A stretch of DNA of 64,000 nucleotides from Candidatus Adlerbacteria bacterium. Lineage in GTDB: Bacteria; Patescibacteriota; Minisyncoccia; Phycocordibacterales; SBAW01. Made by a program: the position numbers and the translations under genes. Location of the stretch: assembly GCA_003135635.1 (NCBI GenBank), contig PLCJ01000001.1, positions 8,836 through 72,835 on the forward strand, written 5' to 3'. Below the pieces are notes generated by a model. That model ran no database searches. It worked only from the letters and a program-made list of their open reading frames with translations, and was not told the DNA's origin. Below are positions 3,589 to 49,702 of the stretch, piece by piece; position 1 is the stretch's first letter, and each line of letters opens with the position of its first letter.

Positions 3589-3654
3589 GTACCTATCCTA
3601 CGATACAATGAGGTCAAATTAAGTGCAGGTAAACCCCTCAGAAAAGTATCCTCC

Positions 3655-5482: not shown

Positions 5483-5486
5483 AGCT

Positions 5487-6551
5487 CTACATCATTAACC
5501 GCTCCAGTGTTTTGGGGTTCCAAGAACGTGCGTAGGCGCTCTCTGGAGTAATTTCTCCGGCACGCACGAGATCCGCCAAGCAGCGATTCATATCAATCAT
5601 GCCTTCCTGGGAACTCGTTTCGATGATAGCGTCGATTTCGTGGATACGTTTTTCTCGAATAAGATTTGCAACTGCACTGGTGTTGATAAGAAGTTCATAG
5701 GCAGGAATAAGTCCACCAGAGATGCGCGGTATAAGCCGCTGAGAAAAGATGCCGCTGAGTGTTTCTGCAAGCTGGGCCCGGACTTGTTCCTGCTGACCCG
5801 AAGGAAATGTATCAAGGATACGATCGATAGTTTGGGAAGCGTTGTTGGTATGGAGCGTCGAAAAAACGAGGTGGCCCGTCTCTGCGGCAGTGACCGCAAT
5901 GGCCATTGTCTCTGATGTCCGCATCTCACCTATCATAAGAACGTCAACATCTTGACGAAATACGGATCCCAGTGCTGTTTCAAAGTCAGCGGTATCAATA
6001 CGCACTTCGCGTTGATCAACAATAGAGCGCTTATTTTCAAATAGATATTCGATTGGATCTTCAATGGTAATAATATGCTCGGTGCGTTCGATGTTGATTT
6101 TTTCAAGAAGCGCCGCAAGGGTGGTCGTCTTTCCTTGTCCCACTGGCCCAACTACTAAAAAAAAGCCCTGCTCACGGGTTGCAAACTGCTCAAGCTCTGA
6201 AGGAAGGTTTAATTCTTTTACTGAGCGAATGGTGCGGGGAACTAGCCGGAGTGCAACACCGATATGACCGCGCTCAACAAATGCATTTCCACGGAAACGC
6301 GCAGTATTGCCGTAGGAGAAAGAAAAATCGGCTTCCTGAGTCTGCAAAAACTTCTGTATACGCTCTGGAGAGAGCATGCGCTCAAGTAGACCCCGCACAT
6401 CTTCGTCGCTGAGTTTCGCTTCAGAGAGAAGTGGTGTCAAGATGCTAGAAACACGAATGACTGGATGCGCACCAGCCGACAAATGAAGATCTGATGCACC
6501 TTGTGCGATTACTTGATTGACAAAAGAAGTGAGCAATTGTTCGTAGTTCAT
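5487..6551 (-). CDS. pilT: Twitching motility retraction ATPase PilT
   Basis: Walker A GPVGQGKTTTLAAL, Asp box DVLMIGEMR, His box GHLVFSTLHTNNA; 354 aa. Confidence 0.92.
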   Translation of the reverse strand: MNYEQLLTSFVNQVIAQGASDLHLSAGAHPVIRVSSILTPLLSEAKLSDEDVRGLLERMLSPERIQKFLQTQEADFSFSYGNTARFRGNAFVERGHIGVALRLVPRTIRSVKELNLPSELEQFATREQGFFLVVGPVGQGKTTTLAALLEKINIERTEHIITIEDPIEYLFENKRSIVDQREVRIDTADFETALGSVFRQDVDVLMIGEMRTSETMAIAVTAAETGHLVFSTLHTNNASQTIDRILDTFPSGQQEQVRAQLAETLSGIFSQRLIPRISGGLIPAYELLINTSAVANLIREKRIHEIDAIIETSSQEGMIDMNRCLADLVRAGEITPESAYARSWNPKTLERLMM

Positions 6552-8401: not shown

Positions 8402-8407
8402 GACATA

Positions 8408-8767
8408 TTAACGTCCCAAGGTTGGCACGGGTAATTTCGTTGTCTGAGATTGGGGCACACTATTTCCAAATGATGCAAAGGGGTTGTGACGACCAACATT
8501 TTCAGGCGGTATAACAACACCAAAATTTGTAAGAGATACAAACACAGGATCAGTAAATATTGAGCTATCAAGCGTTATCGTGCTAAGGCTTGTCAGCGAG
8601 GTAAGTAGTTTCTGGGAAGCGGGCGAGGAAGAGGAATCTCCTGTCGAAATCAAAAGCGTGCTGCTTGAAGAAGAGTTATTCATGCCAAGGGTATAGTAGA
8701 GAAGGCCGCCGATTACCCCCACAGTGACAATGGTCAAGAGTACATTTTGTTTAATAAAGGTCATCAT
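8408..8767 (-). CDS. Small bitopic membrane protein in pilus operon (PilP/PilO-like accessory?)
   Basis: N-terminal TM (LLTIVTVGVIGGLLYYTL), Ser-rich periplasmic part; only positional evidence. Confidence 0.5.
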   Translation of the reverse strand: MMTFIKQNVLLTIVTVGVIGGLLYYTLGMNNSSSSSTLLISTGDSSSSPASQKLLTSLTSLSTITLDSSIFTDPVFVSLTNFGVVIPPENVGRHNPFASFGNSVPQSQTTKLPVPTLGR

Positions 8768-8770
8768 ACG

Positions 8771-9322
8771 TTAATAGAGCCAATAGGTGCGAAAGGTGAT
8801 GGTATACGTTGTGGTGTTTCCGGTTCCATTTTGAAATGAAAGCTGTGTAATATCGACTATGCGCTCACTATGCTCAAGGTCCTGCAGAAACGCCATGAAC
8901 GTATCGTAATTTGTCGTTACTGAAAACCCAAGTTCTGCAGAACCAACTGGATTGCCAGAAGAGCCCACCGCAGCAATGCCGCCCGTGGTGCTGCTGTTTG
9001 ATGCCGTAGCTAATTTAAGGTTGCTGAGCGATAGGTTATACCGGGATGCAATATTGTTAACATCAATGATAAGACGGATGTTATCTACATTGTCAGGAAG
9101 TATCTGCTGCAATTTATCTACATCACTTTGAGAGAAGGCGTTGCTTTTGGTCAATAGTTGCTGACGCAAACCTTGCAACTGTTGCACTTTACTGAGTGCG
9201 TCATCATACTGCACCCCTTGTGATTGCACTCCTTTGATTTGTTGGTAGGTCGGATTGATATACAAGACAAACAGTCCGATGGCAGCAGCAATTAATATGA
9301 GAGGGATGAATATACGAGTCAT
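8771..9322 (-). CDS. pilO: PilO-like pilus assembly protein
   Basis: N-terminal TM + coiled-coil (QQLQGLRQQLLTK) typical of PilO; operon position. Confidence 0.6.
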   Translation of the reverse strand: MTRIFIPLILIAAAIGLFVLYINPTYQQIKGVQSQGVQYDDALSKVQQLQGLRQQLLTKSNAFSQSDVDKLQQILPDNVDNIRLIIDVNNIASRYNLSLSNLKLATASNSSTTGGIAAVGSSGNPVGSAELGFSVTTNYDTFMAFLQDLEHSERIVDITQLSFQNGTGNTTTYTITFRTYWLY

Positions 9323-9324
9323 AG

Positions 9325-9987
9325 TTATTGAAGAGGAGTAGTTGTGGCGGGAAGGATAGGAATAGAAGAGGAAGCAATGGGTTGTACATTTTGGTTAGAA
9401 GTTGCACCAGTGATAAGCTTGTTGCTGTAAAGAAGGAGAGCCTGGCTAACGTTTGTACTCAGGGTAAAAACCACCTGTCCGGATGTGTTGGTATTAATAT
9501 TAGAGAAAATGATATTTTTGAGCATATTGCTGCTGCCGAACTGGTCGCTTTGAAGCGCAAGAGTCGAAAAGGAATCCGCAATGCCCTGCAAGGTGACAAG
9601 TGCGGAACCATTAGGTTGTAGTTGATAATTAAAACTTGTAAATTGGACGTTTAATAGTGTCTGCTGCGAGAGAAAATCAAAAAGAGCAGAGGGAGCCACA
9701 TGCCCGGCAAGCAAAATCTTTGCCTGCAGTATCCGGTTATCCATGCGAACAAGATCATTAATGGAAGAAAGATCAATTGCGCTTTGGTCTTTTTGCAGTA
9801 CAGCGCTTTTATTTGCAATAGATTGGTTCAGATACTGCTCATACCCAAATACCAGCCCAGCTGCAACTAGTGATACTATGAAAATTAACAGCGCAATTAA
9901 AAACAAAAGCCCCGCTCCTTCTCCATGAGAAGGACCCGGAGTAAAAGATTTTTTCGGTATAAAGGACGCGGGAGCTTGAGGATCCAT
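9325..9987 (-). CDS. pilN: PilN-like pilus assembly protein
   Basis: Short cytoplasmic N-term, single TM (LLFLIALLIFIVSLVAAGLVF), follows pilM. Confidence 0.6.
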   Translation of the reverse strand: MDPQAPASFIPKKSFTPGPSHGEGAGLLFLIALLIFIVSLVAAGLVFGYEQYLNQSIANKSAVLQKDQSAIDLSSINDLVRMDNRILQAKILLAGHVAPSALFDFLSQQTLLNVQFTSFNYQLQPNGSALVTLQGIADSFSTLALQSDQFGSSNMLKNIIFSNINTNTSGQVVFTLSTNVSQALLLYSNKLITGATSNQNVQPIASSSIPILPATTTPLQ

Positions 9988-10037
9988 CAGTATTAGTATA
10001 CCGTTAAAAATTCCACAACTGCGGATCTATCAACAGA

Positions 10038-11117
10038 TTAGGCGATTTCCTGCAAACGCCGCAGCGCAAGGCCTACCGCAACAGAAAACTCTGGTCCTGC
10101 TTCTTTAAGAACACCTTCCAGAAATGCTGGCGCCTGTGTTTTTCCAAAAGGATCGGCAAGTCGAATTTCGTTTTGTAACTTACTCTGTGCAAAATCTTTA
10201 AGCCCCTTGAGGGTGGCGCTTCCTCCGGTGACCACCATGGTGCTGAGCGATTGGTTCATGCGCTGCTCGTAGGCAGCAATGGTGCGTGATACCTCCGACA
10301 GCAAGGGTGTTACGGAAAGAGCGAGCGTCTGAGTAAGATCGGGGCCCCCCTCCGGCATAAGGCCAAATTTTCTCTTGCGCTCTTCCGCTTGAGAGACACT
10401 AATATTAAGTGCACGGGAAGCGGCAAGTGTTAAATCTTGGCCTCCGTGATTAATAATATGGCTTTCGCGAATGAGTCCTCGTTCAACCACATAAAACTTT
10501 GTTGTCGCCGCGCCCATGTCAACCACTGCAACCGGCGCAATACCGCGATCAAGGGATGCTCGCACCGCACTAAATACTTCTATTTCAAAAAATGCTAGGG
10601 TAAGTCCGGCATCGCTGACAATACTTTTGAATTTAGCGATGGTATCGTTGTGTATGGCGACTAAAAGTACTTCAAGCTTACTTCCTGGCGTTGCTTCTTT
10701 GCCTCCGCCGGAGAGTACAAACCAATCAAGTAGTACTTCATTTATGGGAACTGGAATATACTTGCGTGCTTCAAGGGGTACCACTTGTGCAAGCTGCTTT
10801 TCGACAGACGCGGGCAATTTCAATATCGAAATAAGGCTCAAGGCATAAGGAATGGAGATTGCTACATCAGTAGTGGTGACACGCGCTTCACGAATCACAT
10901 CTTTAAGCGCTTCAGCGATCTTTTCAGTAGGCAAAGAGGTTGCACGACCAATTTCAAGACCGGCGTATGGCCCAAGGGCGATAGCACCATATGTTTCAAG
11001 TATCACCCGTCCATGTTCACGCCTGAGTTGTACCACCTTGATTGAAGAAGTGCCGACATCGACCCCAATGACACTCTTTTGTTCTTTGGAGAATAATGAT
11101 GAAAAAGAAAAGGCCAT
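10038..11117 (-). CDS. pilM: Type IV pilus assembly protein PilM (actin-like ATPase)
   Basis: SVIGVDVGTSSIKVVQL..., FtsA/actin fold motifs; start trimmed to ATG 11117 (MAFSFSSLFSKEQK) removing 44-aa ORF extension. Confidence 0.88.
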   Translation of the reverse strand: MAFSFSSLFSKEQKSVIGVDVGTSSIKVVQLRREHGRVILETYGAIALGPYAGLEIGRATSLPTEKIAEALKDVIREARVTTTDVAISIPYALSLISILKLPASVEKQLAQVVPLEARKYIPVPINEVLLDWFVLSGGGKEATPGSKLEVLLVAIHNDTIAKFKSIVSDAGLTLAFFEIEVFSAVRASLDRGIAPVAVVDMGAATTKFYVVERGLIRESHIINHGGQDLTLAASRALNISVSQAEERKRKFGLMPEGGPDLTQTLALSVTPLLSEVSRTIAAYEQRMNQSLSTMVVTGGSATLKGLKDFAQSKLQNEIRLADPFGKTQAPAFLEGVLKEAGPEFSVAVGLALRRLQEIA

Positions 11118-27972: not shown

Positions 27973-28044
27973 GCGCGAGTAGCTCAATGGTAGAGCATCC
28001 GTCTTATACACGGACGGCTCCTGGTTCGAGTCCAGGCTCGCGCA
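27973..28044 (+). tRNA. tRNA with anticodon UAU (tRNA-Ile(UAU)-like)
   Basis: GCGCGAG acceptor, D-arm GCTCAATGGTAGAGC, anticodon arm TCCGT-CTTATAC-ACGGA (U33, anticodon TAT, A37), T-arm CCTGGTTCGAGTCCAGG, 3' CTCGCGC+A; followed by CC. Confidence 0.8.
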
Positions 28045-28073
28045 CCGGAGGTTTAGCAGTATACTAATGTCGT

Positions 28074-38750: not shown

Positions 38751-39335
38751 CTACTCGTCAACGCCAAACCGCTTATAGCTAAACGTGGCATCTTTGCCGA
38801 ACCAGTGCGCTATTTCGTGCTGTGCTTCCTCGGGGGTTTCTGAAGCATGAAGAATATTTGCAACTGCACGTTTTTCGCTGTTTGCAATCGCGGGAGAATC
38901 AATGGAGAAATCACCCCGTATGGTACCCATATCTGCCATATACGGCATGGTTGGTCCTGCAATTTTACGCACCATATCAACCGCATGTACCCCCTCCACC
39001 ACCATGCGAACCAGAGGCGCTGAGGTCATGTAATCGATCACCCATAGGCGTACCATGGGGCCTATTTTTTTTGGATCGTTTGTGCCGAGAACTTCTATAG
39101 GGTCTATCTTGTACTTCTCGTACGTGGCAAGTGTCTTCGTGGCCAACCGCTCGATCCAGGCCGAGTCTTTGGGGTAATGATCATCAATCATCTGCCGAGT
39201 CGGTTCAAACATTTGCAGTGCCACGATTTTAAGATCGCGCTGCTCAAAACGCCGAATAACTTCTCCAATGAGTCCTTTGCGCACACCGTCTGGCTTCAGG
39301 AGCACAAAAGTTTGTTCTCTTTTTAAATCTTTCAT
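38751..39335 (-). CDS. ndk: Nucleoside diphosphate kinase (elongated, 194 aa)
   Basis: TFVLLKPDGVRKGLIGEVIRRFE, catalytic His region; ~50 aa longer than typical Ndk. Confidence 0.88.
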   Translation of the reverse strand: MKDLKREQTFVLLKPDGVRKGLIGEVIRRFEQRDLKIVALQMFEPTRQMIDDHYPKDSAWIERLATKTLATYEKYKIDPIEVLGTNDPKKIGPMVRLWVIDYMTSAPLVRMVVEGVHAVDMVRKIAGPTMPYMADMGTIRGDFSIDSPAIANSEKRAVANILHASETPEEAQHEIAHWFGKDATFSYKRFGVDE

Positions 39336-39340: not shown

Positions 39341-39727
39341 CTAGATCATCTTTACTTCAATAGTAACTCCTGAAGGCAGTGAGAGATTGGTCAACGCTTC
39401 AATGACCTTCTGCGATGGATCAAGAATATCTATGAGACGTTTATGCACGCGCATTTCAAACTGCTCGCGGGCGTCTTTGTAAATGAACGTGGAGCGATTC
39501 ACCGTATATTTTTTAATCTCTGTCGGAAGCGGAATAGGGCCGGCGATTTTTGCGTCATAGCGAAGCGCAGTTTCTACAATCTGCTTCACAGACATATCAA
39601 GCACTTTGTGCTCATAGGCGCGCACCTTAATGCGCAGCCGTTGTGGCGGAGCGACGACGGCTACTTTGCGAGGACGCCTGGGCGTTGCCACTTTCTTTTT
39701 CTTTTCTTCTTTTGCGGCTACTGCCAT
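39341..39727 (-). CDS. rpsJ: 30S ribosomal protein S10 with Lys-rich N-terminal extension
   Basis: ...[41 protein letters not shown]; start trimmed to ATG 39727 ([12 protein letters not shown]...). Confidence 0.9.
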
Positions 39728-39737: not shown

Positions 39738-40937
39738 CTAGGCAGTGATCTTGGTGATAACGCCTGCGCCGACGGTCTTACCACCTTCGCGCACGGCGAA
39801 GCGCTGCTTTTCTTCAAGCGCAACCGGGGCAACGAGCTTGACCTTAAAGGTAATGGTATCCCCTGGCATGACCATCTCGGTTCCTCCGGGAAGCGTTACT
39901 TCCCCTGTTACATCCGTAGTGCGCAGATAAAACTGCGGTTTGTATCCGGTGAAAAACGGTGTGTGCCTGCCACCTTCCTCTTTGGTAAGAACATATACCT
40001 CTGATTCAAATTCGGTGTGCGGCGTCACTGAACCGGGTTTTGCAAGCACCTGGCCACGATGGATATCTTCTTTTTTAGTGCCACGAAGAAGTACGCCTGC
40101 ATTATCCCCTGCAACACCGGAGTCAAGCTGCTTGTTGAACATTTCAATACCAGTGACTGTAGTTTTTGTCGTTGGCTGAAGACCGACAATTTCTATTTCT
40201 TCACCTACTTTCACTTGCCCGCGTTCAATGCGACCAGTGACGACCGTGCCACGGCCTTCAATTGAGAAGATGTCTTCAATCGGCATGAGAAATGGCTTGT
40301 CTAACTCGCGCTGCGGAAGCGGAATATAGCTATCAAGCGTCTTTACGAGCTCAAGCACCTTCTGAGATGCTTCGCTGTTTATATCTTTTGATTCAAGTGC
40401 CTTCAGGCCCGATCCGCGAATGACTGGAGCATCTTTGCCATCAAAGCCTTGTTTGGTAAGAAGATCGCGAACTTCTTCTTCAACGAGATCAATGAGGTCT
40501 TTATCATCCACCATGTCTACTTTGTTTAAGAAAACGACCACCCGAGGCACACCGACCTGTTTTGCAAGCAGAATGTGTTCACGGGTCTGGGGCATAACAC
40601 CATCGGTTGCAGCGACAACCAAAATTGCGCCGTCCATCTGTGCGGCACCGGTAATCATGTTCTTAATGTAGTCGGCGTGGCCTGGAGCATCAATGTGTGC
40701 GTAGTGGCGCTCTGGAGTCCAGTACTCAGAGTGGTGAAGTGCAATAGTAATACCGCGCGCTTTTTCCTCAGGCGCGTTGTCGATACCCTCAACTCCCTCT
40801 ACGCGTGCGCCATAGCCCTGGTCTTTGGCCATATCAAGCGTATGGAGAATTGCCGCGGTAAGAGTAGTCTTTCCGTGGTCAACGTGGCCAATGGTGCCGA
40901 CGTTTACGTGAGGCTTGGTGCGTTCAAATGTTGCCAT
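39738..40937 (-). CDS. tuf: Elongation factor Tu
   Basis: [44 protein letters not shown]. Confidence 0.97.
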
Positions 40938-41178
40938 ATCTATAACTAATACTAAGTAATAATGTGCACAATATTGATGTTCTCAAAAGAAAAACCACGC
41001 ACGGATGCGTTGCTTCCTATAGTAGCCGAGGAGCAAGAAAGAGTCAATAACTATATAGCAATCCACTGAAGGGAGTTTGACAAAAGAGTGGGGATGGTGT
41101 ATAAGGAACATAGATGTTTGTGGGGCAAATCTGCACCGCATTCACAATCACTCCACTCCCTACCTAAGGAGGTAGAGA

Positions 41179-41724
41179 ATGAACAATCTCCAACGGCTTG
41201 TCCTGCTAATCGCAGTGGCGAGCGGTGGGCTCGTTGCCTGCACAGGAGGAGGTAGCGGAGGTGGAGGATTTAACCCTACCCCACTGCCGGTGTCTCCGAC
41301 GCCAATGATCACACCCAAGTCCTTCAATGGATTTGATCTCACGGTGTTGGGTAGTGGAAGCCTCGCCGTGGATTACATCCTCACGGGGTCCTATGCCCAG
41401 CAAGTCCCGGCAGCGGATGTCGGGAAGGGAGTCACCTGCGTTCAATCAAACGGGCAGAATTACCTCCAGGGAGCAAGTTTGCATCTTGCTGTCGGGGGAG
41501 AATTGAACGACCCCGACGCTTCGTCAACGGGCTATATCGTGGAGCTGACCGCCAGCTCCGGAGGAAACATTCCCGCAAACGTACAGGTGAAGTGTCAGAT
41601 GAAGCTCAATGACGGCACGGTGATTACCCCCTTCTCCGCGTCCTACGAGACCTGGACGACCGCAGTCCCTTCCGGCTGGACGGAGACGAACGACACTCCG
41701 AGCACGGCAACAGCCGCGCTTTAA
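41179..41724 (+). CDS. Predicted lipoprotein, unknown function; GC-rich relative to neighbours
   Basis: Signal + lipobox LLIAVASGGLVAC; strong SD AAGGAGG 7 nt upstream; codons end mostly in G/C, unlike flanking genes. Confidence 0.7.
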   Translation: MNNLQRLVLLIAVASGGLVACTGGGSGGGGFNPTPLPVSPTPMITPKSFNGFDLTVLGSGSLAVDYILTGSYAQQVPAADVGKGVTCVQSNGQNYLQGASLHLAVGGELNDPDASSTGYIVELTASSGGNIPANVQVKCQMKLNDGTVITPFSASYETWTTAVPSGWTETNDTPSTATAAL

Positions 41725-41730
41725 TTCCCA

Positions 41731-41790
41731 AAACACGAGAGCCCGTTCCGACGCACAGATTGTGCATCGGCGCGGGCTCATTTTTTATAT
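41731..41790 (+). terminator. Rho-independent terminator
   Basis: GAGCCCG...CGGGCTC stem with internal palindrome, followed by ATTTTTTAT. Confidence 0.65.
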
Positions 41791-41796
41791 AACTAA

Positions 41797-42687
41797 TCAG
41801 TGAGAAGAAAGGGTGGAGTCATTGCTCTGACTAGGAAGTGCACGAATAGCAGTGAGAAAATCGTTGAAGTGTTGCGCCAAAATTGGCTGGCCCGTTACTA
41901 AGTTCTTTGTCCAACTAAATTCAGGTAGCCCGCATTGCGTATATATTGCATTTACTGCGTCTCGTAAAGCTATGTAGTGGGCAGCTCTAATTACAGTATT
42001 GCCTGATACGAGTTCTGTGGGCTCTCCCCCATTTATTGCCAGTGGATCAGTATTCCCAAAGCTGTCTAGGTCAAGGTGTGTACCCGTTACCTGAAAATAC
42101 AGCTGTATTATCGCAGCACGGAGATCTGTAACCCCAGCTGCATATATGGGTGTGCCCAGAGATACGCTTGGGGGCAATGAGACAGAAAATAAGCTGCAAT
42201 TACTTCCTGCCACCGTATAGGTTGCTGTTGCAGTAAGTCCATAGGACTCTGCGCTTACTGTATAGGTACCCGGAGTATCTGGAGCATTAAACGTCGTACT
42301 GTAAAGAAATCCTCCTCCAGTATCTACAGTTTGATCGGAGGGATCTCCCGGGGCCGCTAGAATTAAAATACCATCAAACGCATCTCCAGTAATAGGACTG
42401 AGTGGAATTATTCCACTAATTGTAACGGTTTCCCCTGGTGCATACGCTGATTTGTCCGTACTCACAGTGGTACACTGTATATCTTTATACTCAATAATTT
42501 TCTCATCAGAGGTATAGCCCGGTAAATCAGCATTGGTATAATAGATCGTTGTGCAGGAAGAGCCAAACGTGCCATTATTTCGTGAAGCATTAACACTGTG
42601 AGAAGAAAAAGAAAATATCACACTAAAGACTGCTACAAAAAGAAGAGCGAATTTGAAAAAGGTTGAAGTTGCTGAGATTTGTTTCAT
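41797..42687 (-). CDS. Secreted protein, unknown function
   Basis: Signal peptide MKQISATSTFFKFALLFVAVFSVIFSFSSHSVNA; Thr/Gly-rich beta domain; start trimmed to ATG 42687. Confidence 0.6.
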   Translation of the reverse strand: MKQISATSTFFKFALLFVAVFSVIFSFSSHSVNASRNNGTFGSSCTTIYYTNADLPGYTSDEKIIEYKDIQCTTVSTDKSAYAPGETVTISGIIPLSPITGDAFDGILILAAPGDPSDQTVDTGGGFLYSTTFNAPDTPGTYTVSAESYGLTATATYTVAGSNCSLFSVSLPPSVSLGTPIYAAGVTDLRAAIIQLYFQVTGTHLDLDSFGNTDPLAINGGEPTELVSGNTVIRAAHYIALRDAVNAIYTQCGLPEFSWTKNLVTGQPILAQHFNDFLTAIRALPSQSNDSTLSSH

Positions 42688-42723
42688 ATAATCGCCAAGT
42701 TTAGTCATAAAAAATTTTTCTAC

Positions 42724-44028
42724 TCATAGCTCTACATGATGCATTCCATGCTTCAGTGCAAAAAATGCACCAAGAAGGATAAGAAGCACTAGAATAAACG
42801 CAAATAATTCGGTATTTGCTTTGCTCCATGGCAAAGTATTTATCGGAGGATGTGCGCTTATAACGATTAGCATTTTGTGAGCATATACATTTCCCGTTCC
42901 GTCTGTTATGGAAGCCGTAACTGTAGGGCTTATACATGTCGCTGTTATTTGCATGGGCACGACAATCTGAATGCTACTTGAGCTAGTTATTGTTTGTGAC
43001 ACGGGCGCGGCGCACGAGAATCCTTTTCCATCTACAAGAGAGAGGCCGAGATAGGCTTCTCGTGCAGTAGATCCGCTAAAAAAGTCAGGAGAGAGTGTCC
43101 AGGTGACGGTGGCAGTTGCAACATCACCTCTAGCATACATATCTTTATCAAGAACAAGATCTTCTATCGTTGCAGAAGGTCCGCTTACCTGATAAAGGAA
43201 AAAGGTAGGATTTGAAACTATGCTACCGGCACTATCAGCAAAGCTTAATTTAGCTTCATACAGCTGAGGCATTTGAGGTACGAGCAATAGGAAAGAAACC
43301 GAGTGCAGGGCGCCAGGAGAAAAAACACTTCCCTGCTGTGCAGAAGGTGCGGCTGTCACCATTTGACCGAACTGACTTTGATAAAATGTCTCAACGACAG
43401 GTGAGAGCGTTTGCACAGACGTAAAATGGCTTTGCACCTGACAGGTCGCACGAAGTATGTCCGTGGAGGATACTCCTATTCTCTGCTGAGGCAGATAATG
43501 TGTAGTACTTGTCCCTACGGTAAGAAAGCAGGTCGAAGGAAGAATTGTTGCATATCCCTGATTAGATGCTGGCACAATTATCTTCCCAGCAAAGGCAACC
43601 CCAAGTGGAAGTCCACTGCTTGTACGGGCTTCTATAACAATTTGATATGTGCCGGATAGATAGGGAGGAATCGGATATGAAATACTGCGGCCGATGGATT
43701 GATTGGCAGAGAGAGAAAGAGTTTCATTTGCAACGCTGGTATCAACAATTTGCTGCGGTGTTCCTTTTTGTGTTGATAGGACATCGATACCGTAGCGAAT
43801 ATCCGGCTGCGCAGTATCGCTATTTTGTAGCGCAAAAGTAACGGTGAGAATCCCGCCACTTAGCTGTGCATTCGCGGCATGAATCGATACCGTGGAAATG
43901 GTGGCTTGCTCTGTAGAAGTACTCACTGCGGCAAAAGCTGTCGAAGAGTAAGAAAGAGCAATTAACAAAATCGCTGCCGCGCCAAGATGCTTAAACACAA
44001 ACGTAATAAGGGGATAGGGCTTTTTCAT
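42724..44028 (-). CDS. Secreted protein with C-terminal membrane anchor, unknown function
   Basis: N-terminal signal (AAILLIALSYSSTAFA), C-terminal LFAFILVLLILLGAFFALKH helix; start trimmed to ATG 44028. Confidence 0.6.
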   Translation of the reverse strand: MKKPYPLITFVFKHLGAAAILLIALSYSSTAFAAVSTSTEQATISTVSIHAANAQLSGGILTVTFALQNSDTAQPDIRYGIDVLSTQKGTPQQIVDTSVANETLSLSANQSIGRSISYPIPPYLSGTYQIVIEARTSSGLPLGVAFAGKIIVPASNQGYATILPSTCFLTVGTSTTHYLPQQRIGVSSTDILRATCQVQSHFTSVQTLSPVVETFYQSQFGQMVTAAPSAQQGSVFSPGALHSVSFLLLVPQMPQLYEAKLSFADSAGSIVSNPTFFLYQVSGPSATIEDLVLDKDMYARGDVATATVTWTLSPDFFSGSTAREAYLGLSLVDGKGFSCAAPVSQTITSSSSIQIVVPMQITATCISPTVTASITDGTGNVYAHKMLIVISAHPPINTLPWSKANTELFAFILVLLILLGAFFALKHGMHHVEL

Positions 44029-44035
44029 TTGAATT

Positions 44036-44383
44036 CTATTGATAGACGATGCCCGCGGTTGAAGGAGAACATATAATATTTCCTTGTGCATCTGTGGCGA
44101 GATTAGTGCAGTTTTGTATTGGTATCAACTCAACACTACCTTGACGCACAATAAGAGCTTGGGCCTGTACGCCCCCTGCGTTTAGCTCTACACCACCCTG
44201 TTTTATTTGCCAGCTGGAACCAACATTTAAGGGAGCCGGGGTGTTGCCACCTGGAGCTTGGGCGGTAGGAGGATTCCACACACCGGAGTCAGCAGAGACG
44301 ATATTAGCGAAAAGCACGGCACCGCCAAGGGCAAGAAAAACAACTGCGGCCTGAGTTAGTATGGCTTTTAATTCTATTTTCAT
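44036..44383 (-). CDS. Small secreted protein (116 aa)
   Basis: Signal peptide AVVFLALGGAVLFANIVSA; Gly-rich; start trimmed to ATG 44383. Confidence 0.55.
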   Translation of the reverse strand: MKIELKAILTQAAVVFLALGGAVLFANIVSADSGVWNPPTAQAPGGNTPAPLNVGSSWQIKQGGVELNAGGVQAQALIVRQGSVELIPIQNCTNLATDAQGNIICSPSTAGIVYQ

Positions 44384-44428
44384 ACTCTGTGATTCCTTAA
44401 TTACACCTAATAATATCACTTTCCCACA

Positions 44429-45490
44429 CTATAACTCTCTATACGAAGGTATGAGGGTAATACTCACACTTGAAGTATAGGGAGCTCCGTTTGAATCCGT
44501 GCACGTTAAAGTATATATCGCCTTTTGGGTAATGGGTTTAGTGGTAAACTCCGAATTCCCCGAAAGAGTCCCTCTGTCAGCATTTGTGGCAGAGATAGAG
44601 CATGAACTTAGATTAACATTTGACAAATTGACCCCATACAGGTTGACCTTCGATTGAGCAGTAACAAGTGCGCTTTCAACACATGAGGATTGTTTCGTAC
44701 TGAGACAGCCACTAGCAGAAGGGGGTATGCATTGGCCCGTGCTTTGATTGCATCCATCATTACAAGCAGTAACCGCTACTTGATTTGGATCGGTGGTACA
44801 TTCACTGCTACCGTCTGGAGAACAGGTACACCCCGTAATGCATTCCCCCGTACCTTGATTGCAGCCCAGTGGACAATCTGTTGTTGTTGTATTTCCTTGG
44901 GTGTCTGTGGTCTGACTATTATTGCTGTCAATGCAGATATGGGTGTTGGGGGTCGCATACACTCCGCTAAATGATACCCAGCCAACGACATTTCCTCCCC
45001 ATGCAAACCCACTCAATACGCCATCCTGTGCAGTAAGGCCGTCCCCATAGCCAGTGCTGCCAAGATCGATCCATCCATCCCATCCATCAGTACGGCCAAT
45101 AGCTGAGATCGCCCGTGCCCATCCCGTAACAGTGCCATCTCTAGCAACTTTTCCCTGACAACTACTCCCTTGGGGGACAGGGCATCCTTGCACATCATTG
45201 TAGTTGAAACTCACCCAACCGATGTTGCTGCTCCAGGCATAACCGCTTAATGTTCCCGTAGGGAATCCGGAGGAAATGACGTCGTAATTACTTGTTCCGC
45301 ACACATTACTTTGTCCTGGACCGCCCTCCTCGCAGTTTAAGCTTATCCATCCGATATTACTGCTCCATGCATAACCTCCAATTGGGGTTGGGGGAACAGC
45401 GAAAGCATGCACTCGTGAAGATAGAGCGACTATAGACACAAAAACCAGAAGGAGGGACAGTAGAAACCACCACCGGCCGAAAATATTCAC
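44429..45490 (-). CDS. Secreted repeat protein: three G[YF]AW[SG][SG]N[IV][GV]W[IV]SF motifs + Cys-rich C-terminal modules
   Basis: Signal peptide; GYAWSSNIGWISLN / GYAWSSNIGWVSFN / GFAWGGNVVGWVSFS; CPLGCNQGTGECITGC and CNDGCNQSTGQCIP modules. Confidence 0.65.
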   Translation of the reverse strand: MNIFGRWWFLLSLLLVFVSIVALSSRVHAFAVPPTPIGGYAWSSNIGWISLNCEEGGPGQSNVCGTSNYDVISSGFPTGTLSGYAWSSNIGWVSFNYNDVQGCPVPQGSSCQGKVARDGTVTGWARAISAIGRTDGWDGWIDLGSTGYGDGLTAQDGVLSGFAWGGNVVGWVSFSGVYATPNTHICIDSNNSQTTDTQGNTTTTDCPLGCNQGTGECITGCTCSPDGSSECTTDPNQVAVTACNDGCNQSTGQCIPPSASGCLSTKQSSCVESALVTAQSKVNLYGVNLSNVNLSSCSISATNADRGTLSGNSEFTTKPITQKAIYTLTCTDSNGAPYTSSVSITLIPSYREL

Positions 45491-45544
45491 TCCCCAATTA
45501 TACTTGGGTAGAAGGTATGAAGGAGCGCGGTTATCAACAACGAC

Positions 45545-47689
45545 CTATTTTCTCTCAGCCACTATTGCTGCCGAAACACTGGGCGGCACCACCTCATAAT
45601 GGTCAAATTCCATAGTAAAACTTGCCCGTCCCTCAGTCATTGAGCGCAGCACGGTCGTATAGCCGAACATCTCCGCAAGAGGGACGGTTGCTCTAATAGC
45701 TCGGGCAAGCCCCCGCTCTTCGGTCCCCTCTATCTGACCGCGCCTTCCGTTGAGGTTGCCCGTAACGTCACCCATAAACTTTTCAGGCGTCACGACTTCT
45801 ACCTTCATGACAGGCTCAAGCAAGACTGGCTTAGCAGCTTTTGCCGCGTCCTGGAAGCCCATTGAAGCCGCAATTTTAAAAGCGATTTCTGAGGAATCTA
45901 CATCGTGATAGGAGCCATCGTAGAGTTCAACGGAAATATCAACGAGCTTAAAGCCCGCAACGATGCCTCGCTCCATTGCCTCGCGTACTCCTTTTTCAAC
46001 TGCAGGTATGTACTCCTGAGGAATCACTCCTCCTTTGATGTTATTGATGAATTCAAAGTGATCCTCCCGAGTAATGTTTTTGCGCACCTTTGCTCCCTCC
46101 ACAATTTTCTCAAGAGGTTTTATGCGCAGCCGTACATGACCATACTGTCCGCGGCCGCCTGTTTGTTTTATATATTTCCCTTCCGCCTCAGCCTCTTTTT
46201 GTATAGTTTCGCGATACGCCACCTGCGGCTTGCCGACATCAGCCTCAACGTTAAATTCGCGTTTCATGCGATCAACCAAAATTTCCAAGTGGAGCTCCCC
46301 CATGCCCGCAATAAGAGTCTCGAGAGTCTCCGCATCAGTTGAAACTTTAAACGTAGGATCTTCATCGGAGAGTTTCTTCAGAGCAATACCCATTTTTTCC
46401 TGGTCTGCTTTGGTCTTGGGTTCAATGCGCATAGAAATAACTGGTTCGGGAAAGTGTATTTGCTCAAGGATAATGGGATTATTCTCATCACAAAGTGTAT
46501 GGGAAGTTTTGGTGTTTTTGAGGCCCACCGCCGCAGCAATCTCTCCGGAGTACACCGTCTTTACTTCTTCGCGCTGGTCAGCTTGCAGGCGCACGATGCG
46601 TCCCACTCGCTCTTTCTCTCCCGTGGTCGAGTTATAAACATAGGAACCCGCTTCAACAATGCCCGAATACACACGGAAAAACGTGAGCTGCCCCACAAAG
46701 GGATCCGCTTGGAGTTTAAAAGCAAGCGCACAAAAGGGCTCAGAGTCAGACGCATGGCGTTCCACCTCTTTGCCATCTTTTGGATTAATGCCCTTAACTG
46801 GTGGCATATCAAGAGGAGAAGGCAAATAGTCTACAACCGCGTCAAGCACGAGCTGCACCCCTTTGTTTTTAAGCGCGGAGCCGGTGTAAACGGGAAAGAT
46901 CTTGTTATCTATGACCGCTCCCCGAAGGGTGGCATTGAGCTCTTCAAGACTCGGCTCTTTACCGTCAAGGTAGCTGGTCATGAGTGCATCATTGTGCTCG
47001 ACAATTCTTTCGACGAGCTCAGCGCGATACTTGGTGGCGTCAGGGAGATATGCCTCTGGAATAGCAAATTCGATGACCGCATCACCCATATTCCCCTCAA
47101 AGCGGTAGGCTTTCATTTTCAAAAGATCAATCACGCCTTCAAACTTCTCTTCAGCGCCAATAGGGATTTGCATGCGTACGGCGCTCTTGCTCAAGCGATC
47201 AAGAATAGAGTGAAAGGATTTCTCAAAGGATGCACCGGTGCGATCAAGTTTGTTGATGAAACACACCCGCGGCACTTTCGCTTCGTCGGCATAGCGCCAG
47301 TTGGTCTCCGACTGCGGTTCAACGCCGGCAACACCATCAAATACAACGATTGCCCCATCGAGCACTCGCATAGAGCGCTTTACTTCAGCGGTAAAATCAA
47401 TATGCCCCGGGGTATCGATAATATTGAAACGGTATTTCTTAGACGCATCTTTTTTATCCTGCTCCTCAGTCTTTGACCAAAAACAAGTAATCGCAGCGGC
47501 AGTGATAGTAATACCTCGCTCCCTCTCCTGCTCCATCCAGTCAGTGGTGGTCTCCCCTTCATGCACCTCACCGATTTTGTGCTGCGACCCTGTGTAGTAC
47601 AAAACACGCTCAGACGTGGTCGTCTTGCCCGCGTCGATGTGCGCGATGATGCCGAAATTGCGAACTTTTTGAAGTGGGTAGTCTCTCAT
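45545..47689 (-). CDS. fusA: Elongation factor G
   Basis: [33 protein letters not shown]; 714 aa. Confidence 0.97.
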
Positions 47690-47769: not shown

Positions 47770-48780
47770 CTAAAGATCAAGAATATGCCGCGCAAGTAGT
47801 GTGGAATCGTGACGAATAAGATCCTGCACAAGACCAGGCTTGCTTAAGAAATCCGCGCACACAATTTTTTCCGACCGCAAACGCACCCGCTCCTCAGCCC
47901 CCGCATCAAAGACAACCGGGAATGCTTTTTCTTTCGCCTGGTATGCCTGAAGCAACTTCTTCGGGATCACTCCACTATTAACGAGTACCGCGTCAAGACA
48001 ATCTCTCCCGATACCATAGGCAAAGAGCGTTTCAACAAAATCCGCAACGCTAAAATCTCTCGTTTCGGCATACTTCGTCATAATATTTGCAACGTATATA
48101 ACTCGCGCGGAGGAATCATGAATTGCTTCTGCGGCTCCCTCTACCAGAAGATTTGGGATAATGGAGGTGTAGAGGTCGCCCGGTCCCAACACAATGAGAT
48201 CGGCTTTCTGTATTGCCTCAGCTGCTTCACGGCAGATAAGCGCAGAGGGCTGAAGTGATACACGCACAATAGTGCGCGTATCATTGTACCCGCGCGTATC
48301 AATCGCTCCTTCACCTTCCAGAGAAGAGCCGTCGGAGAGCTCCGCCACCAAAGTAGCGTGATCTATTGAAATCGGCAGTACTTCTCCGTGGGCATCAAGG
48401 AGCCTGCTTATCCGACGAATGCCTTCAATCGGTCCCCACAATTGCTCCGCGGCAAGTAGCAGCACATTGCCTACGTTGTGTTCGGAAAGTCCCGAACCAT
48501 TTCCTTGAAAACGGTGGCTAAAAATTTCTCGCAGAGTATCGTACTCATCATTTGCCAGTGCCAAGATACACCGGCGAATATCTCCTTGGGGCAGTGAACC
48601 AAATTCATCGCGCAGCTTCCCAGTGCTCCCGCCGCTGTCAAACACCGTACAAATCGCCGTCGGTCGGCCAGGATACCGGTTGAGCCCGCGATTGACTATA
48701 AACCCACCGCTTCCGCCGCCGATGGTCACAATCCTTCGCTCTAATATGTGGGAGCTGCCCTGCATGCCTTTAGGATACAA
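47770..48780 (-). CDS. yvcK: YvcK/CofD-like (UPF0052, gluconeogenesis factor family) protein
   Basis: IVTIGGGSGGFIVNRGL, FDSGGSTGKLRDEFG motifs. Confidence 0.8.
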   Translation of the reverse strand: MYPKGMQGSSHILERRIVTIGGGSGGFIVNRGLNRYPGRPTAICTVFDSGGSTGKLRDEFGSLPQGDIRRCILALANDEYDTLREIFSHRFQGNGSGLSEHNVGNVLLLAAEQLWGPIEGIRRISRLLDAHGEVLPISIDHATLVAELSDGSSLEGEGAIDTRGYNDTRTIVRVSLQPSALICREAAEAIQKADLIVLGPGDLYTSIIPNLLVEGAAEAIHDSSARVIYVANIMTKYAETRDFSVADFVETLFAYGIGRDCLDAVLVNSGVIPKKLLQAYQAKEKAFPVVFDAGAEERVRLRSEKIVCADFLSKPGLVQDLIRHDSTLLARHILDL

Positions 48781-48809: not shown

Positions 48810-49280
48810 CTACCACGCAAAGTGCGCAAACGCTTTGTTCGCTTCAGCCATTTTATGCGTATCTTCGCGCTTTTTTACCGCCACTCCTTCATTATTGGAA
48901 GCCGAAAGAATTTCTTCAGCAAGACGTTTATGCATTGCCATGCCTTTGCGCGAACGGGCTGCGGTTAAAATCCATCGAAACGCAAGTGCTTGTTTGCGCT
49001 CAGAGCGGACTTCCCTTGGCACTTGATAGTTAGCACCCCCGACTCGGCGAGAGCGAATTTCCATAGTGGGACTTACATTGCGCAGCGCCGTTTCAAACAC
49101 TTCAACCGGATTTTCAACCTTTGCTTTCTCTTTGATCAGGTCAAATGCGTCATACACCACCTTGCGTGCAGTTGATTTCTTTCCATCCAACATCACCGAA
49201 TTGATAAATTTTTCAACCCGAAGTGATTGGTACTTGAGGTCAGGTTTAAGTTCGTGTTTTTTCTTAAGAGGTCTGCGCAT
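48810..49280 (-). CDS. rpsG: 30S ribosomal protein S7
   Basis: [26 protein letters not shown]. Confidence 0.95.
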
Positions 49281-49285: not shown

Positions 49286-49702
49286 TTACTTATTTTTGGG
49301 CTTCTTACCCCCATAGCGGCTGCGAGAAACCCGCCGCTTCTCAAGGCCGGAAGCATCCAGACGGCCACGCACCACTTGATAGCGGACGTTAATATCTTTC
49401 ACCCGACCCGCGCGCACCATAACCACGGAGTGTTCCTGGAGATTATGGGTCTCGCCAGGAATATACGCAGTAATTTCTTGTCCGTTCGTGAGACGCACCC
49501 GAGCAATTTTTCGAATGGCAGAGTTTGGTTTGCGCGGTGTTTTGGTAGTCACCTTAGTACACACACCGCGTTTAAAGGGCGATGGGTAAAAAACAGGACG
49601 GTTTTTAACTGCATTAAAACCACGCCCGAGCGCCGGCGCTTTTGATTTTGATTTAATCATTCCCTTACGTCCGCTGCGAACTAGTTGTGAGATACGTGCC
49701 AT
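49286..49702 (-). CDS. rpsL: 30S ribosomal protein S12
   Basis: [15 protein letters not shown]...[29 protein letters not shown]. Confidence 0.95.

Follow-up and report, generated by a model that had tools for sequence, protein, structure and literature searches.

Exported-protein genes between fusA and tuf in a Candidatus Adlerbacteria genome: a proposed fast-diverging surface cassette

Background

The str operon joins rpsL, rpsG, fusA and tuf in one order on one strand, and in the genome analysed here the last two of these genes are separated by 4.6 kb of other coding sequence. The stretch studied, called the window below, comprises 64,000 nucleotides of Candidatus Adlerbacteria contig PLCJ01000001.1. 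The initial annotation had proposed that genes for secreted proteins are inserted between fusA and tuf, that they share the transcript and the high expression of their neighbours, and that the arrangement is uncommon and may represent a lineage-specific surface or host-interaction module. The questions raised by this locus are what the inserted genes encode, how they are transcribed, and whether their position has any meaning.

Co-oriented genes unrelated to translation, inherited within lineages, are known in or between conserved translation operons, as exemplified by tusDCB, bfd-bfr and nrdHEF (2019, PMC6735719; Brandis 2021, PMC8046335). Those cases concern Gammaproteobacteria and Bacilli and lie mostly between operons (PMC6735719; PMC8046335), whereas the genes described here are placed inside the str string (fusA/tuf) and, in relatives, inside the S10 operon (rpsJ/rplC, rplB/rpsS). 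They differ also in that one recurrent exported-protein module forms the cargo and that the junction is variable across the whole radiation.

Results and discussion

Structure of the locus

The ORF listing combined with Pfam and NCBIfam scans gave the minus-strand order rpsL-rpsG-yvcK-fusA-P1-P2-P3-P4, followed by P5 on the plus strand and then by tuf-rpsJ-ndk, again on the minus strand. The str-type string is headed by rpsL (ribosomal protein S12, 49286-49702; Ribosom_S12_S23 was matched on the identical locus L001) and continues with rpsG (ribosomal protein S7, 48810-49280; Ribosomal_S7), a yvcK/CofD-like gene (47770-48729; PF01933 CofD, E 3.7e-76, and TIGR01826 YvcK, E 1.7e-76, above cutoff) and fusA (EF-G, 45545-47689), which encodes the complete EF-G set of Pfam domains. 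The interval between the fusA stop and the tuf start is exactly 40938-45544. Beyond it lie tuf (EF-Tu, 39738-40937; GTP_EFTU, D2 and D3), rpsJ (S10, 39341-39727; Ribosomal_S10) and ndk (38751-39335; NDK). The order and common strand of rpsL, rpsG, fusA and tuf are those of a canonical str operon; contiguity is lost at two points, since yvcK splits rpsG from fusA and five genes split fusA from tuf. The interruption downstream of fusA by co-oriented signal-peptide genes, and the resumption of tuf-rpsJ beyond P5, were thus read correctly at the outset; ndk had been omitted.

The yvcK gene between rpsG and fusA had also been overlooked. rpsJ is detached from the remaining S10 operon: ndk stands where rplC would be expected, and rplC, rplD, rplW, rplB, rpsS and rplV were not found within the 64-kb window. 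The same rpsJ-ndk order is present in two related loci, L004 and L087.

Transcription signals

The fusA-P1 spacer (45491-45544, minus strand) is 54 bp long and contains no hairpin (fold z +0.5). P1 and P2 are separated by 45 bp, P2 and P3 by 7 bp, and P3 and P4 by 15 bp, so that there is no room for terminators, as the initial annotation had held. Since terminators are absent, we infer that P1-P4 are co-transcribed with fusA and prolong the rpsL-rpsG-yvcK-fusA unit at its 3' end. A perfect TATAAT (45502-45497) lies in the fusA-P1 spacer, 6 nt ahead of the GTG start of P1, and this TATAAT-N6-GTG arrangement is shared by L004; it may be a candidate internal promoter adding to P1-P4 transcription.

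The 55-bp region between the convergent genes P4 and P5 (41725-41779; stem 41739-41779) was predicted to form a bidirectional intrinsic terminator, with a folding energy of -33 kcal/mol (z -5.1) on the minus strand and -30.5 kcal/mol (z -6.0) on the plus strand. The hairpin, assigned at first to P5 only, also directly follows the P4 stop. It is followed by UCUCGUGUUUUGGG on the island strand and by AUUUUUUAUAU on the plus strand; the island-strand U-tract is mediocre in this genome, while L004 and L087 keep hairpins at the position after P4 with canonical T-runs.

A sigma-70-like promoter was predicted upstream of tuf by consensus scan and conservation (41019-41047, minus strand; TTGACT, 17 nt, TACTAT). 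Promoter-like matches were overall no commoner than in shuffled sequences, and the evidence for this element is therefore its conservation: TTGACT-N16/17-TAC(T/A)AT is retained in the window, L004 and L087 amid diverged DNA. The tuf leader of the same three genomes contains a 28-nt block (40985-41012, minus strand) that is near-identical, with two single-base differences, and consists of the hairpin ACGCA-N4-TGCGT followed by GGUUUUUCUUUUG, a terminator- or attenuator-like layout. The block is absent from 168 other loci and has no Rfam match; folding by itself gives no significant signal (z -0.6). The 3' end of the block is overlapped by another promoter-like site, at 40986-40959 (TTGAGA, 16 nt, CATTAT).

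Because a hairpin terminator follows P4, an antisense gene intervenes and a conserved promoter precedes tuf, we argue for two transcription units rather than one running through tuf, and the read-through across P5 envisaged earlier would not be required. The supposed high expression of P1-P4 by hitch-hiking on fusA finds no support in their codon usage: the preference for C-ending codons is 0.18-0.40 in P1-P4 versus 0.55 in tuf.

The encoded proteins

Export signals are readable in the translations of all five proteins. The signal peptides of P1-P4 end in AxA-type sites and N_methyl (the class III signal peptide) was not found in P1-P5; genuine N_methyl pilins are encoded at two other places of the window (1660-2292 and 3655-4152). 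Apart from a weak MG2 match of P4, no Pfam, NCBIfam or PDB-sequence match was obtained for P1-P4. The features by which the proteins had first been described, namely repeats and cysteines in P1, a C-terminal anchor in P3, a threonine-rich P4 and a lipoprotein P5, were all seen, the anchor as a transmembrane (TM) segment.

P1 (44429-45490, minus strand; 353 aa, cleavage site SSRVHA/FA) contains 18 Cys, 11 Trp and three clear G[YF]AW(S/G)..(I/V)GW(I/V)SF repeats. The AF2 model, all-beta like that of P3, comprises a barrel-like domain of 8 strands with W-rich hairpin repeats (residues ~35-180), a Cys-rich spacer of low confidence (~182-260) and a C-terminal PKD/Ig-like domain. The hemophilin and TbpB/HpuA/fHbp barrels are likewise small, soluble, 8-stranded and secreted or surface-located, but they are only 6-18 % identical to P1, which has no PDB sequence match and whose barrel is assembled from four W-rich repeats. 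The likeness may be purely topological.

P2 (44036-44383, minus strand; 115 aa, cleavage site NIVSA/DS) is a minimal member of a family named P2N here. Its mature N-terminus follows the conserved pattern W-x-(G)P...PP..N..AP(L/I)NVG...Q.K.GG and its short C-terminal part contains two Cys. Matches were found in L004 (E 1e-8), L087 (44 % identity, E 1.5e-21) and three L002 paralogues, and the P2N profile matched proteins in 20+ loci (E 1e-14 to 1e-24). The family combines this conserved N-terminus with variable tips: longer relatives carry the fibre chaperone Peptidase_S74 (E 1e-15 to 2e-20; L139, L143, L134 and L168), Shufflon_N, Lcl_C or Fibrinogen_C. They thereby resemble phage-type trimeric fibres and spikes with a C-terminal S74 chaperone, having a conserved attachment end and exchangeable distal ends, some with Shufflon_N-like or lectin tips. 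Unlike such fibres, P2N proteins are chromosomally encoded with Sec signal peptides and no phage genes nearby, and P2 of the window is the N-terminal module alone, without any fibre or lectin tip; the Pfam scan found no Peptidase_S74 in P1, P2, P3 or P4.

In each of the 11 Patescibacteria contexts with P1 or a full-length homologue (the window and 10 others), the P1 gene adjoins a P2N gene. A small single-TM protein with EEK..L..L repeats is encoded upstream of P1 in L002 and L167-L171, and in a 112-aa version in L174; L172 and L173 have equally placed ORFs of 127 and 145 aa that were not counted in this comparison. The protein is absent from the window and L004, where the fusA-P1 gap is 50-54 bp.

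P3 (42724-44028, minus strand; 434 aa, cleavage site STAFA/AV) has three to four tandem beta-sandwich domains, modelled by AF2 as Ig-like, ahead of a C-terminal TM helix (residues 403-427). P4 (41797-42708, minus strand; 303 aa, cleavage site HSVNA/SR; 12 % Thr) contains an Ig-like domain with the motif STDKSAYAPGETVTISG and I.A.H..LR.A-type repeats in its C-terminal part; orthologues are present in L087 (E 4e-7) and L004 (E 2e-4). In most P3 homologues a TM hairpin links P3 to a fused P4-like part; these proteins read SP-P3-TM1-basic loop-TM2(AxA)-'TDKNTYAPGETITLSG', and P4 corresponds to the region beyond that hairpin, aligning with residues 501-614 of the fused homologue P0235 (phmmer, E 1.6e-9). 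These alignments indicate that P3 and P4 together are the split form of a large membrane-anchored multi-Ig family whose protein most relatives encode as one polypeptide. With its signal peptide, tandem beta-sandwiches and C-terminal membrane anchor, P3 resembles the MSCRAMM/SpaA-type multi-Ig adhesins of monoderms (MG, FnIII and PKD repeats). It differs from them in matching no Pfam adhesin family and in having no LPXTG motif in its C-terminus, which ends in PPINTLPWSKANTELFAFILVLLILLGAFFALKHGMHHVEL and presents a TM segment and basic residues. We know of no counterpart of the TM-hairpin fusion or split among these adhesins.

P5 (41179-41724, plus strand; 181 aa) is convergent with P4 and divergent from tuf, and is preceded by the Shine-Dalgarno sequence AAGGAGGT. 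Lipoproteins were recognized by a signal peptide ending in [LVI][ASTVI][GAS]C, and P5, reading MNNLQRLVLLIAVASGGLVA/C with the lipobox LVA/C followed by the Gly-rich linker GGGSGGGG, is one of them. At the corresponding position, L004 (397 aa, LAA/C) and L087 (184 aa, LSA/C) also encode lipoproteins with Gly runs on the opposite strand, without detectable sequence similarity to P5.

Conservation of the slot and variability of the junction

Synteny comparison, proposed with the initial annotation, revealed P1 or P3 homologues in the same fusA-tuf slot in four other assemblies, in which the flanking proteins are 64-92 % identical to those of the window and the island proteins only 21-44 %. L004, read from a 548-kb contig, has fusA at 87 %, tuf at 92 %, yvcK at 68 %, P1 at 32 % and P3 at 33 % identity; L087 has tuf at 91 %, P2 at 44 % and P3 at 39 %, together with a P4-like gene and the opposite-strand lipoprotein. 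In L167 and L168, fusA is 71 %, tuf 80-81 % and P1 30-40 % identical, and a P2N gene is adjacent.

The junction was surveyed in 36 relatives, all of them species representatives whose fusA identity reaches 60 % or more. The fusA-tuf gap was at most 150 bp in only five of them and 1.7-6.7 kb in nine, while tuf was not within 5-10 kb in seven, so that the junction is interrupted (by at least 1.7 kb, or with tuf not nearby) in 16 of 36. The same scan of non-CPR genomes gave gaps of 47-180 bp. An interrupted junction is therefore uncommon only when set against model bacteria, and it is common among relatives.

Such figures could also mean that the junctions of the str and S10 operons simply tolerate insertions and that dynamic surface-protein genes gather there by chance, their position and co-orientation having no regulatory significance; we regard this as possible but rather unlikely. 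The gaps of other relatives hold heterogeneous genes (signal-peptide proteins, type IV pilin-like proteins, coiled-coil proteins and metabolic genes), and because the slot also receives unrelated, even metabolic, genes, the fusA-tuf location may lack functional meaning. The rpsG-fusA junction varies as well, with yvcK in the window and L004, UDG in L168 and a PaaX-like gene in L167. P1-P4 have ordinary codon usage, and 5 of 80 P3-family loci are next to r-protein genes, not clearly above the ~5 % that we estimate for equally permissive junctions. Against chance gathering, the same module is retained although fusA has diverged down to 71 % and the island proteins to 21-40 %, and 5 of 11 independently sampled P1 contexts are inside the str/S10 string, at two junctions. 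One of these is rpsJ-[...small TM protein, P2N, P1]-rplC in L174. P3 relatives occupy a further junction, rplB-[P3 family]-rpsS in L118 and L157, and also occur as rpsJ-P3 in L129 and fusA-330 aa-P3 in L101; the cassette is co-oriented with the flanking translation genes in every case.

The island is thus no isolated cargo but one case of a module, P1 + P2N + P3/P4, that is widespread in Patescibacteria and found in several genomic places. The module, which is defined in this analysis, is undescribed and corresponds to no published family. Of the earlier suggestion of a lineage-specific surface module, export and conservation in the lineage stand; the idea of a lone cargo does not.

Other origins and roles

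CPR cells show a patterned surface layer by cryo-EM, and to our knowledge its proteins are unidentified. P3/P4 with P1 might build such a regular layer or another part of the envelope of these ultra-small cells, and not a device for host attachment, with translation operons supplying high constitutive expression. The P3 family is very large, nearly all of its members combining Ig-like domains with a signal peptide and a TM anchor (longer ones add PKD, Big and CARDB domains), and it recurs inside r-protein operons. A structural role is nevertheless improbable: no SLH or other recognised S-layer domain was found by Pfam in P1-P5 or in 53 P3-family members, the codon bias of very high expression is absent, and lectin and fibre tips are present on the accompanying P2N proteins. 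Because some loci (L094, L106, L135 and L149) hold two adjacent P3-family genes, adhesin-type variability fits better than a single lattice protein.

It is very improbable that the island is a recently acquired mobile or phage-derived element, such as a prophage tail-fibre remnant, which landed in the str operon by chance. The phage-type Peptidase_S74 of P2N relatives, the atypical composition of P5 (GC 0.58 and GC3 0.65, versus about 0.44 for the window) and a full-length P1 homologue in L005, within an integrase/AlpA/HicAB island on a GC-rich, apparently non-CPR contig, would fit such an origin. Yet the island borders showed neither an integrase nor a transposase, no tRNA and no repeats flanking them in direct or inverted orientation; there was no PHROG match at E<0.01, P1 matched no viral fold at E<=1e-3, P1-P4 lie within the GC range of the window with only P5 atypical, and the position is conserved even where fusA identity between genomes has fallen to 71 %.

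A chimeric join in assembly or binning can be dismissed, since the identical 263,578-bp contig was recovered in two samples (P1 being found on 4 contigs) and the gene order recurs in L004, L087, L167 and L168, independent assemblies from other studies.

Proposed function and expression

We consider it probable that the fusA-tuf interval is a vertically inherited, very fast-diverging cell-surface cassette typical of Paceibacteria (Patescibacteria/CPR) that works and is transcribed as follows. P3/P4 would form a membrane-anchored stalk, on which P1 would assemble with P2-type proteins, through the conserved N-terminus of the latter, into a surface fibre or adhesion structure that contacts host cells, partner cells or other ligands outside the cell. 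We infer purely from gene neighbourhood and gene fusion that P1, P2 and P3/P4 might interact physically. The fast divergence of the island proteins would reflect selection on exposed surfaces, and these proteins are most reasonably read as serving at the surface or in host interaction. P1-P4 would be transcribed as the tail of the rpsL-rpsG-yvcK-fusA unit, possibly aided by the TATAAT-N6-GTG promoter, the unit ending at the strong hairpin after P4, and tuf-rpsJ-ndk would restart from their own conserved promoter. The classical str operon would therefore be split in two, with the cassette as the tail of the first unit.

Conclusions

Judged from the genes themselves, the inserted cassette most likely encodes a fibre or adhesion apparatus of the cell surface that is expressed by 3' prolongation of the rpsL-fusA unit. 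It is a tentative and, in our view, unlikely extension of this that the P3/P4 stalk, P1 and the fibre proteins of the P2N family constitute an undescribed Patescibacteria-specific organelle for host or partner attachment, with a membrane anchor, a barrel acting as adaptor and fibre tips that can be exchanged. Embedding at fusA/tuf, rpsJ/rplC and rplB/rpsS would then be adaptive because production of the attachment apparatus would be coupled to the translation machinery. If such an organelle exists, fusA and tuf, being universally conserved, would flank the hypervariable cassette as ready anchors for recovering it from any community.

Gene order of the interrupted str operon

In the window, the 40938-45544 interval between fusA and tuf is filled with five genes encoding exported proteins, P1 to P5. 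The minus strand carries rpsL (49702-49286), rpsG (49280-48810), fusA (47689-45545), tuf (40937-39738), rpsJ (39727-39341) and ndk (39335-38751), as assigned by the ORF listing and Pfam/NCBIfam scans. The same strand contains the ORFs for P1 (353 aa, 45490-44429), P2 (115 aa, 44383-44036), P3 (434 aa, 44028-42724) and P4 (303 aa, 42708-41797), whereas P5 (41179-41724), encoding a 181-aa lipoprotein, lies on the plus strand. Export signals are readable in all five products, and the signal-peptidase sites of P1-P4 are of the AxA type. Since the gene order matches and all five products carry export signals, the interruption of the str order by four co-oriented exported-protein genes and an opposite lipoprotein gene, described in the initial annotation with coordinates corresponding exactly to the fusA-tuf interval, was confirmed.

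Two features of the locus had been missed. The rpsG-fusA junction is broken by a YvcK/CofD-like gene (48729-47770, minus strand; UDP-GlcNAc-binding protein family, TIGR01826) and constitutes a second variable junction of the same operon. This yvcK is kept in L004, one of the loci of other genomes compared with the window (L-numbers), and the slot is occupied by UDG in L168 and by a PaaX-like gene with a 114-aa ORF in L167. Furthermore, the genes after rpsJ are ndk and one for a beta-CASP RNase, in place of rplC. None of rplC, rplD, rplW, rplB, rpsS and rplV is present within the 64-kb window, so that in this lineage S10 is separated from its operon, likewise in L004 and L087.

Elsewhere in the window, a type IV pilus gene cluster (500-8401, minus strand) encodes a PilB-like ATPase (6548-8401), a PilT-like ATPase (5487-6551), PilC (4268-5482), two N_methyl pilins (3655-4152 and 1660-2292) and a prepilin peptidase (2252-3106). 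ARAGORN called a tRNA-Ile with anticodon TAT at 27973-28046 (plus strand); such a tRNA is unusual in bacteria, in which AUA is normally read by a lysidine-modified CAT tRNA.

The fusA-tuf junction in other genomes

The fusA-tuf distance was scanned in species-representative genomes, and those with fusA at least 60 % identical were regarded as relatives (n = 36). In the non-CPR genomes of the scan the gap was 47-180 bp. Among the relatives it was 150 bp or less in 5, 405-1125 bp in 15 and 1.7-6.7 kb in 9, and in the remaining 7 tuf was not found within 5-10 kb of fusA. Among bacteria generally the arrangement is thus uncommon, as had been proposed, but within this radiation it is ordinary. In the nearest representative, L007 (fusA 84 % identical), the two genes are 116 bp apart. 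The inserted genes are heterogeneous: many are co-oriented and encode signal-peptide or pilin-like proteins (L011, L014, L018, L033, L038, L067, L068), and metabolic or coiled-coil inserts are present in L026 and L031. The gaps of L067 (2726-5519) and L068 (12198-13337) contain type IV pilin-like genes with FTLIELL N-termini, followed by a gene for a conserved acidic protein of 93-97 aa. For this gene cluster 163 alterations, typically small insertions between operons, have been catalogued in Gammaproteobacteria and Bacilli (Brandis 2021, PMC8046335). No description of the protein motifs reported here, nor of str/S10 operon interruption in CPR bacteria, was found in the literature.

The synteny comparison demonstrated that the same slot is filled in four other loci. 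L004, a 548-kb contig (GCA_027451965.1), has the gene string of the window, rpsL-rpsG-yvcK-fusA-[four genes]-(opposite lipoprotein)-tuf-rpsJ-ndk, with identities of 87 % for fusA, 92 % for tuf, 91 % for rpsL, 68 % for yvcK and 64 % for the beta-CASP gene. The island proteins are far less conserved: P1 is 32 % and P3 33 % identical, P2 is recognisable in its N-terminal half only and P4 barely. In L087 (tuf 91 %) the order is P2 (44 %), P3 (39 %), a P4-like gene, an opposite lipoprotein gene and tuf-rpsJ-ndk. In L167 (fusA 71 %, tuf 81 %) and L168 (fusA 71 %, tuf 80 %) the gap holds a P1 homologue with an adjoining gene of the P2N family, defined by the conserved mature N-terminus of P2, and other accessory genes. 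The cassette of exported-protein genes is conserved in position in the fusA-tuf slot and diverges rapidly. It is thus old, vertically kept and diverging much faster than its neighbours, the flanks being far more conserved than its products.

Signals for transcription

The spacers fusA-P1, P1-P2, P2-P3 and P3-P4 are 54, 45, 7 and 15 bp long and no hairpins were found in any of them, in agreement with the claimed lack of terminators inside the co-oriented genes. Directly 3' of the P4 stop codon lies a 41-nt hairpin (41739-41779). Its predicted energy is -33 kcal/mol (z -5.1) on the island strand, where the U-tail is moderate, and -30.5 kcal/mol on the other strand, where the U-run is canonical. 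Being stable with U-tails on both strands, it is predicted to terminate both convergent genes, P4 and P5, and so to provide the lipoprotein gene with its own terminator. Canonical terminators occur at the equivalent position in L004 and L087.

Promoter-like matches in the region are no commoner than in shuffled sequence, so conservation alone was taken as promoter evidence. When the regions upstream of tuf were aligned among the three closest genomes, a conserved promoter-like element, TTGACT-N16/17-TAC(T/A)AT, emerged at 41047-41019 in the window. Directly downstream of its -10 element, the tuf leader contains a 28-nt block (41012-40985, minus strand) consisting of a 5-bp hairpin and GGUUUUUCUUUUG. 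This hairpin with its U-tract (AACGCATCCGTGCGTGGTTTTTCTTTTG) is near-invariant in the window, L004 and L087, and only in these three among 171 loci. Rfam gave no match within 40850-41900 at a permissive threshold. Judged by its sequence, the block could serve in attenuation, in 5' stabilisation or in insulation from antisense read-through. Its end is overlapped by another promoter-like site.

A perfect TATAAT is located 6 nt before the GTG start of P1 in both the window (45488-45502, minus strand) and L004 (9989-10003), and may mark an internal promoter from which a leaderless or near-leaderless mRNA would be made; the GGGGA beside this start lies too near it to serve as a Shine-Dalgarno sequence. 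A hairpin around the Shine-Dalgarno sequence of P5 was neither significant (z -0.8) nor conserved, and this idea was dropped.

By its predicted terminator and promoter signals the str string is divided, in our reading into two units, rpsL...fusA-P1-P4 and tuf-rpsJ-ndk. Given the putative terminator after P4 and the conserved tuf promoter element, read-through into tuf across antisense P5, considered in the initial annotation, would be unnecessary. Codon usage, a proxy that gives a weak signal throughout this genome, left high expression of the island genes without support: C-ending codons make up 0.18-0.40 of the two-fold codons in P1-P4 vs 0.55 in tuf. Overall, the feature is real and was correctly described, and its interpretation was right only in part.

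Proteins encoded by the cassette

No meaningful match to P1-P5 was obtained in Pfam, NCBIfam or PHROGs, only sub-threshold ones (Pentapeptide, MG2, a fusolisin signal-peptide region). P1 contains 18 Cys and 11 Trp residues and has at least 2669 homologues; all those with a source name come from Patescibacteria lineages. The AlphaFold2 model of P1, based on 63 homologues (mean pLDDT 78.9), predicts an N-terminal helix and a beta-barrel-like domain (about residues 35-180) made up of repeated W-rich hairpins, then a Cys-rich spacer of low confidence and, at the C-terminus, an Ig/PKD-like domain. The model gave no match to a viral fold library at E<=1e-3, only generic Ig/PKD matches, and a phage origin was rejected on this ground; the P1 profile had no match among PDB sequences. 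The C-terminal end (last 6 columns of alignment A1, window residues 348-353) is conserved as P-x-[FYV]-x-E-x-COOH; it reads IPSYREL in the window, and P348 and E352 are nearly invariant in the family. This end may simply complete the PKD-like domain as its last strand, or it may serve as a recognition/sorting tag. A full-length homologue with the same architecture (34 % identity) and no P2N neighbour was found in L005 (10001-10975) and L006. The L005 contig is GC-rich (0.59), its other genes look proteobacterial and the P1 gene lies within an integrase/AlpA/HicAB island, possibly a sign that P1 has spread horizontally beyond Patescibacteria.

In P2 and its counterparts the signal peptide is followed by the P2N module, W-x-(G)P...PP..N..AP(L/I)NVG...Q.K.GG. 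Longer P2N proteins carry C-terminal modules of several kinds, including Peptidase_S74 (E down to 2e-20), Shufflon_N, Lcl_C and Fibrinogen_C; Peptidase_S74 is the intramolecular chaperone of trimeric phage-type fibres. The P2 of the window is a minimal form without a tip.

A word-indexed homologue search with P3 and P4 returned the query itself as the sole match. The P3 family emerged only in an exhaustive HMMER search and comprises at least 1243 representative clusters (50 % identity), 534 of them at E<=1e-30. P3 has a C-terminal TM helix, and its model (pLDDT 89.3, pTM 0.79) predicts a row of beta-sandwich domains with the TM helix last; its fold matches are generic Ig/FnIII/MG only. Its homologues are mostly 700-1800 aa long, typically with a signal peptide, the P3 region, TM1, a short basic loop and TM2 with an AxA site, followed by 'TDKNTYAPGETITLSG...'. 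This last part is homologous to P4 (phmmer E 1.6e-9), in which Thr accounts for 12 % of residues. In this lineage P3 and P4 are therefore the separated halves of one protein, a direct argument for a joint function.

In P5, a Gly run comes after the lipobox LVA↓C. P4 and P5 had no match among PDB sequences. The counterparts of P5 in L004 and L087 are positional only, being opposite-strand lipoproteins with Gly-rich linkers and no detectable sequence similarity to it. The P5 gene is a compositional outlier (GC 0.58 and GC3 0.65 vs about 0.47 and 0.44 for the window). The fixed position and dissimilar sequence suggest repeated replacement or very fast evolution.

Recurrence of the module

Twelve full-length P1 homologues on long contigs were picked regardless of context, and the P1 gene directly adjoins a P2N gene in 11 of 11 Patescibacteria contexts. 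A gene for a single-TM protein of 93-151 aa with EEK..L..L repeats lies 5' of P1 in L002 and L167-L171, a 112-aa one is present in L174, and small ORFs occupy this position in L172 and L173, judged by position alone; the window and L004 lack it. P2N genes are found directly upstream of P3-family genes in L087, L088, L127, L131, L132 and L162, and P1-type genes near them in L108, L124, L138 and L139. The cassette thus belongs to a widespread module defined by the P1-P2N adjacency and the P3/P4 fusion.

The module occurs at fusA-tuf (window, L004, L087, L167, L168), at rpsJ-rplC within the S10 operon (L174, with P3-like, small TM, P2N and P1 proteins all there), and downstream of rpoD (L002, L170), tyrS (L169, L171, L173) or a ManC-like gene (L172). 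The P3 family alone is found at the rplB-rpsS junction (L118, L157), directly 3' of rpsJ (L129) and one gene after fusA (L101). The L174 insertion is an approximately 10-kb island (1029-10996), which also contains a PaaX-like gene and genes for several large proteins that have signal peptides and Cys-rich/PKD modules of the P1 type; the P1 is full-length and the small TM protein has repeats. A further gene (177 aa) lies at rplB-rpsS of L174. In the related low-GC Paceibacteria contigs L118 (3986-8199) and L157 (6110-13225), a P3-family protein of 1108-1228 aa is encoded at rplB-rpsS beside a small membrane protein, with additional 226-aa and 794-aa signal-peptide proteins in L157.

It is striking that the module returns repeatedly in the translation gene string; statistically this cannot be called established, because the fusA-tuf cases may stem from one insertion and because P3 loci close to r-protein genes, 5 of 80, are about what uniform placement would give with every junction permissive (our rough estimate). 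The strongest alternative belongs here, namely that the junction is a neutral permissive slot of no regulatory meaning; it is considered rather unlikely.

Interpretation and significance

CPR bacteria, Paceibacteria among them, are believed to lead a life attached to other cells, and to our knowledge essentially none of their contact-making proteins other than type IV pili are known. The island products would probably form a surface fibre or adhesion apparatus, in which P3/P4 may be the membrane stalk carrying P1 and the conserved end of P2-type proteins. The relatives would bind external ligands through exchangeable tips, and expression of the cassette would come from the 3' end of the rpsL-fusA unit. 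A structural role in the envelope or an S-layer appears improbable. A mobile or phage-derived island is disfavoured and very improbable, since there is no recombinase, repeat or tRNA at the island and no viral fold match; at its borders only chance-level short matches were found, besides a duplication inside the Cys-rich part of P1. An assembly artefact is refuted, as the 263,578-bp contig containing the window was found in two samples and the same slot is filled in independent assemblies.

The broken operon is common in the radiation, and the main value of the finding lies in the link among three families and their repeated occurrence in translation operons. Through conserved adjacency and gene fusion, three large families with no Pfam, NCBIfam or PDB-sequence match (P1, P2N and P3/P4) are joined in what looks like one candidate surface system, which offers concrete targets for structural and localisation work. 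In this radiation several junctions of the supposedly rigid str/S10 string are interrupted, which bears on marker-gene synteny, binning checks and models of operon evolution. Since fusA and tuf, which flank the cassette, occur universally and are strongly conserved, they allow it to be retrieved from different populations for comparison, and this could open surface-protein diversification in uncultured bacteria to study.
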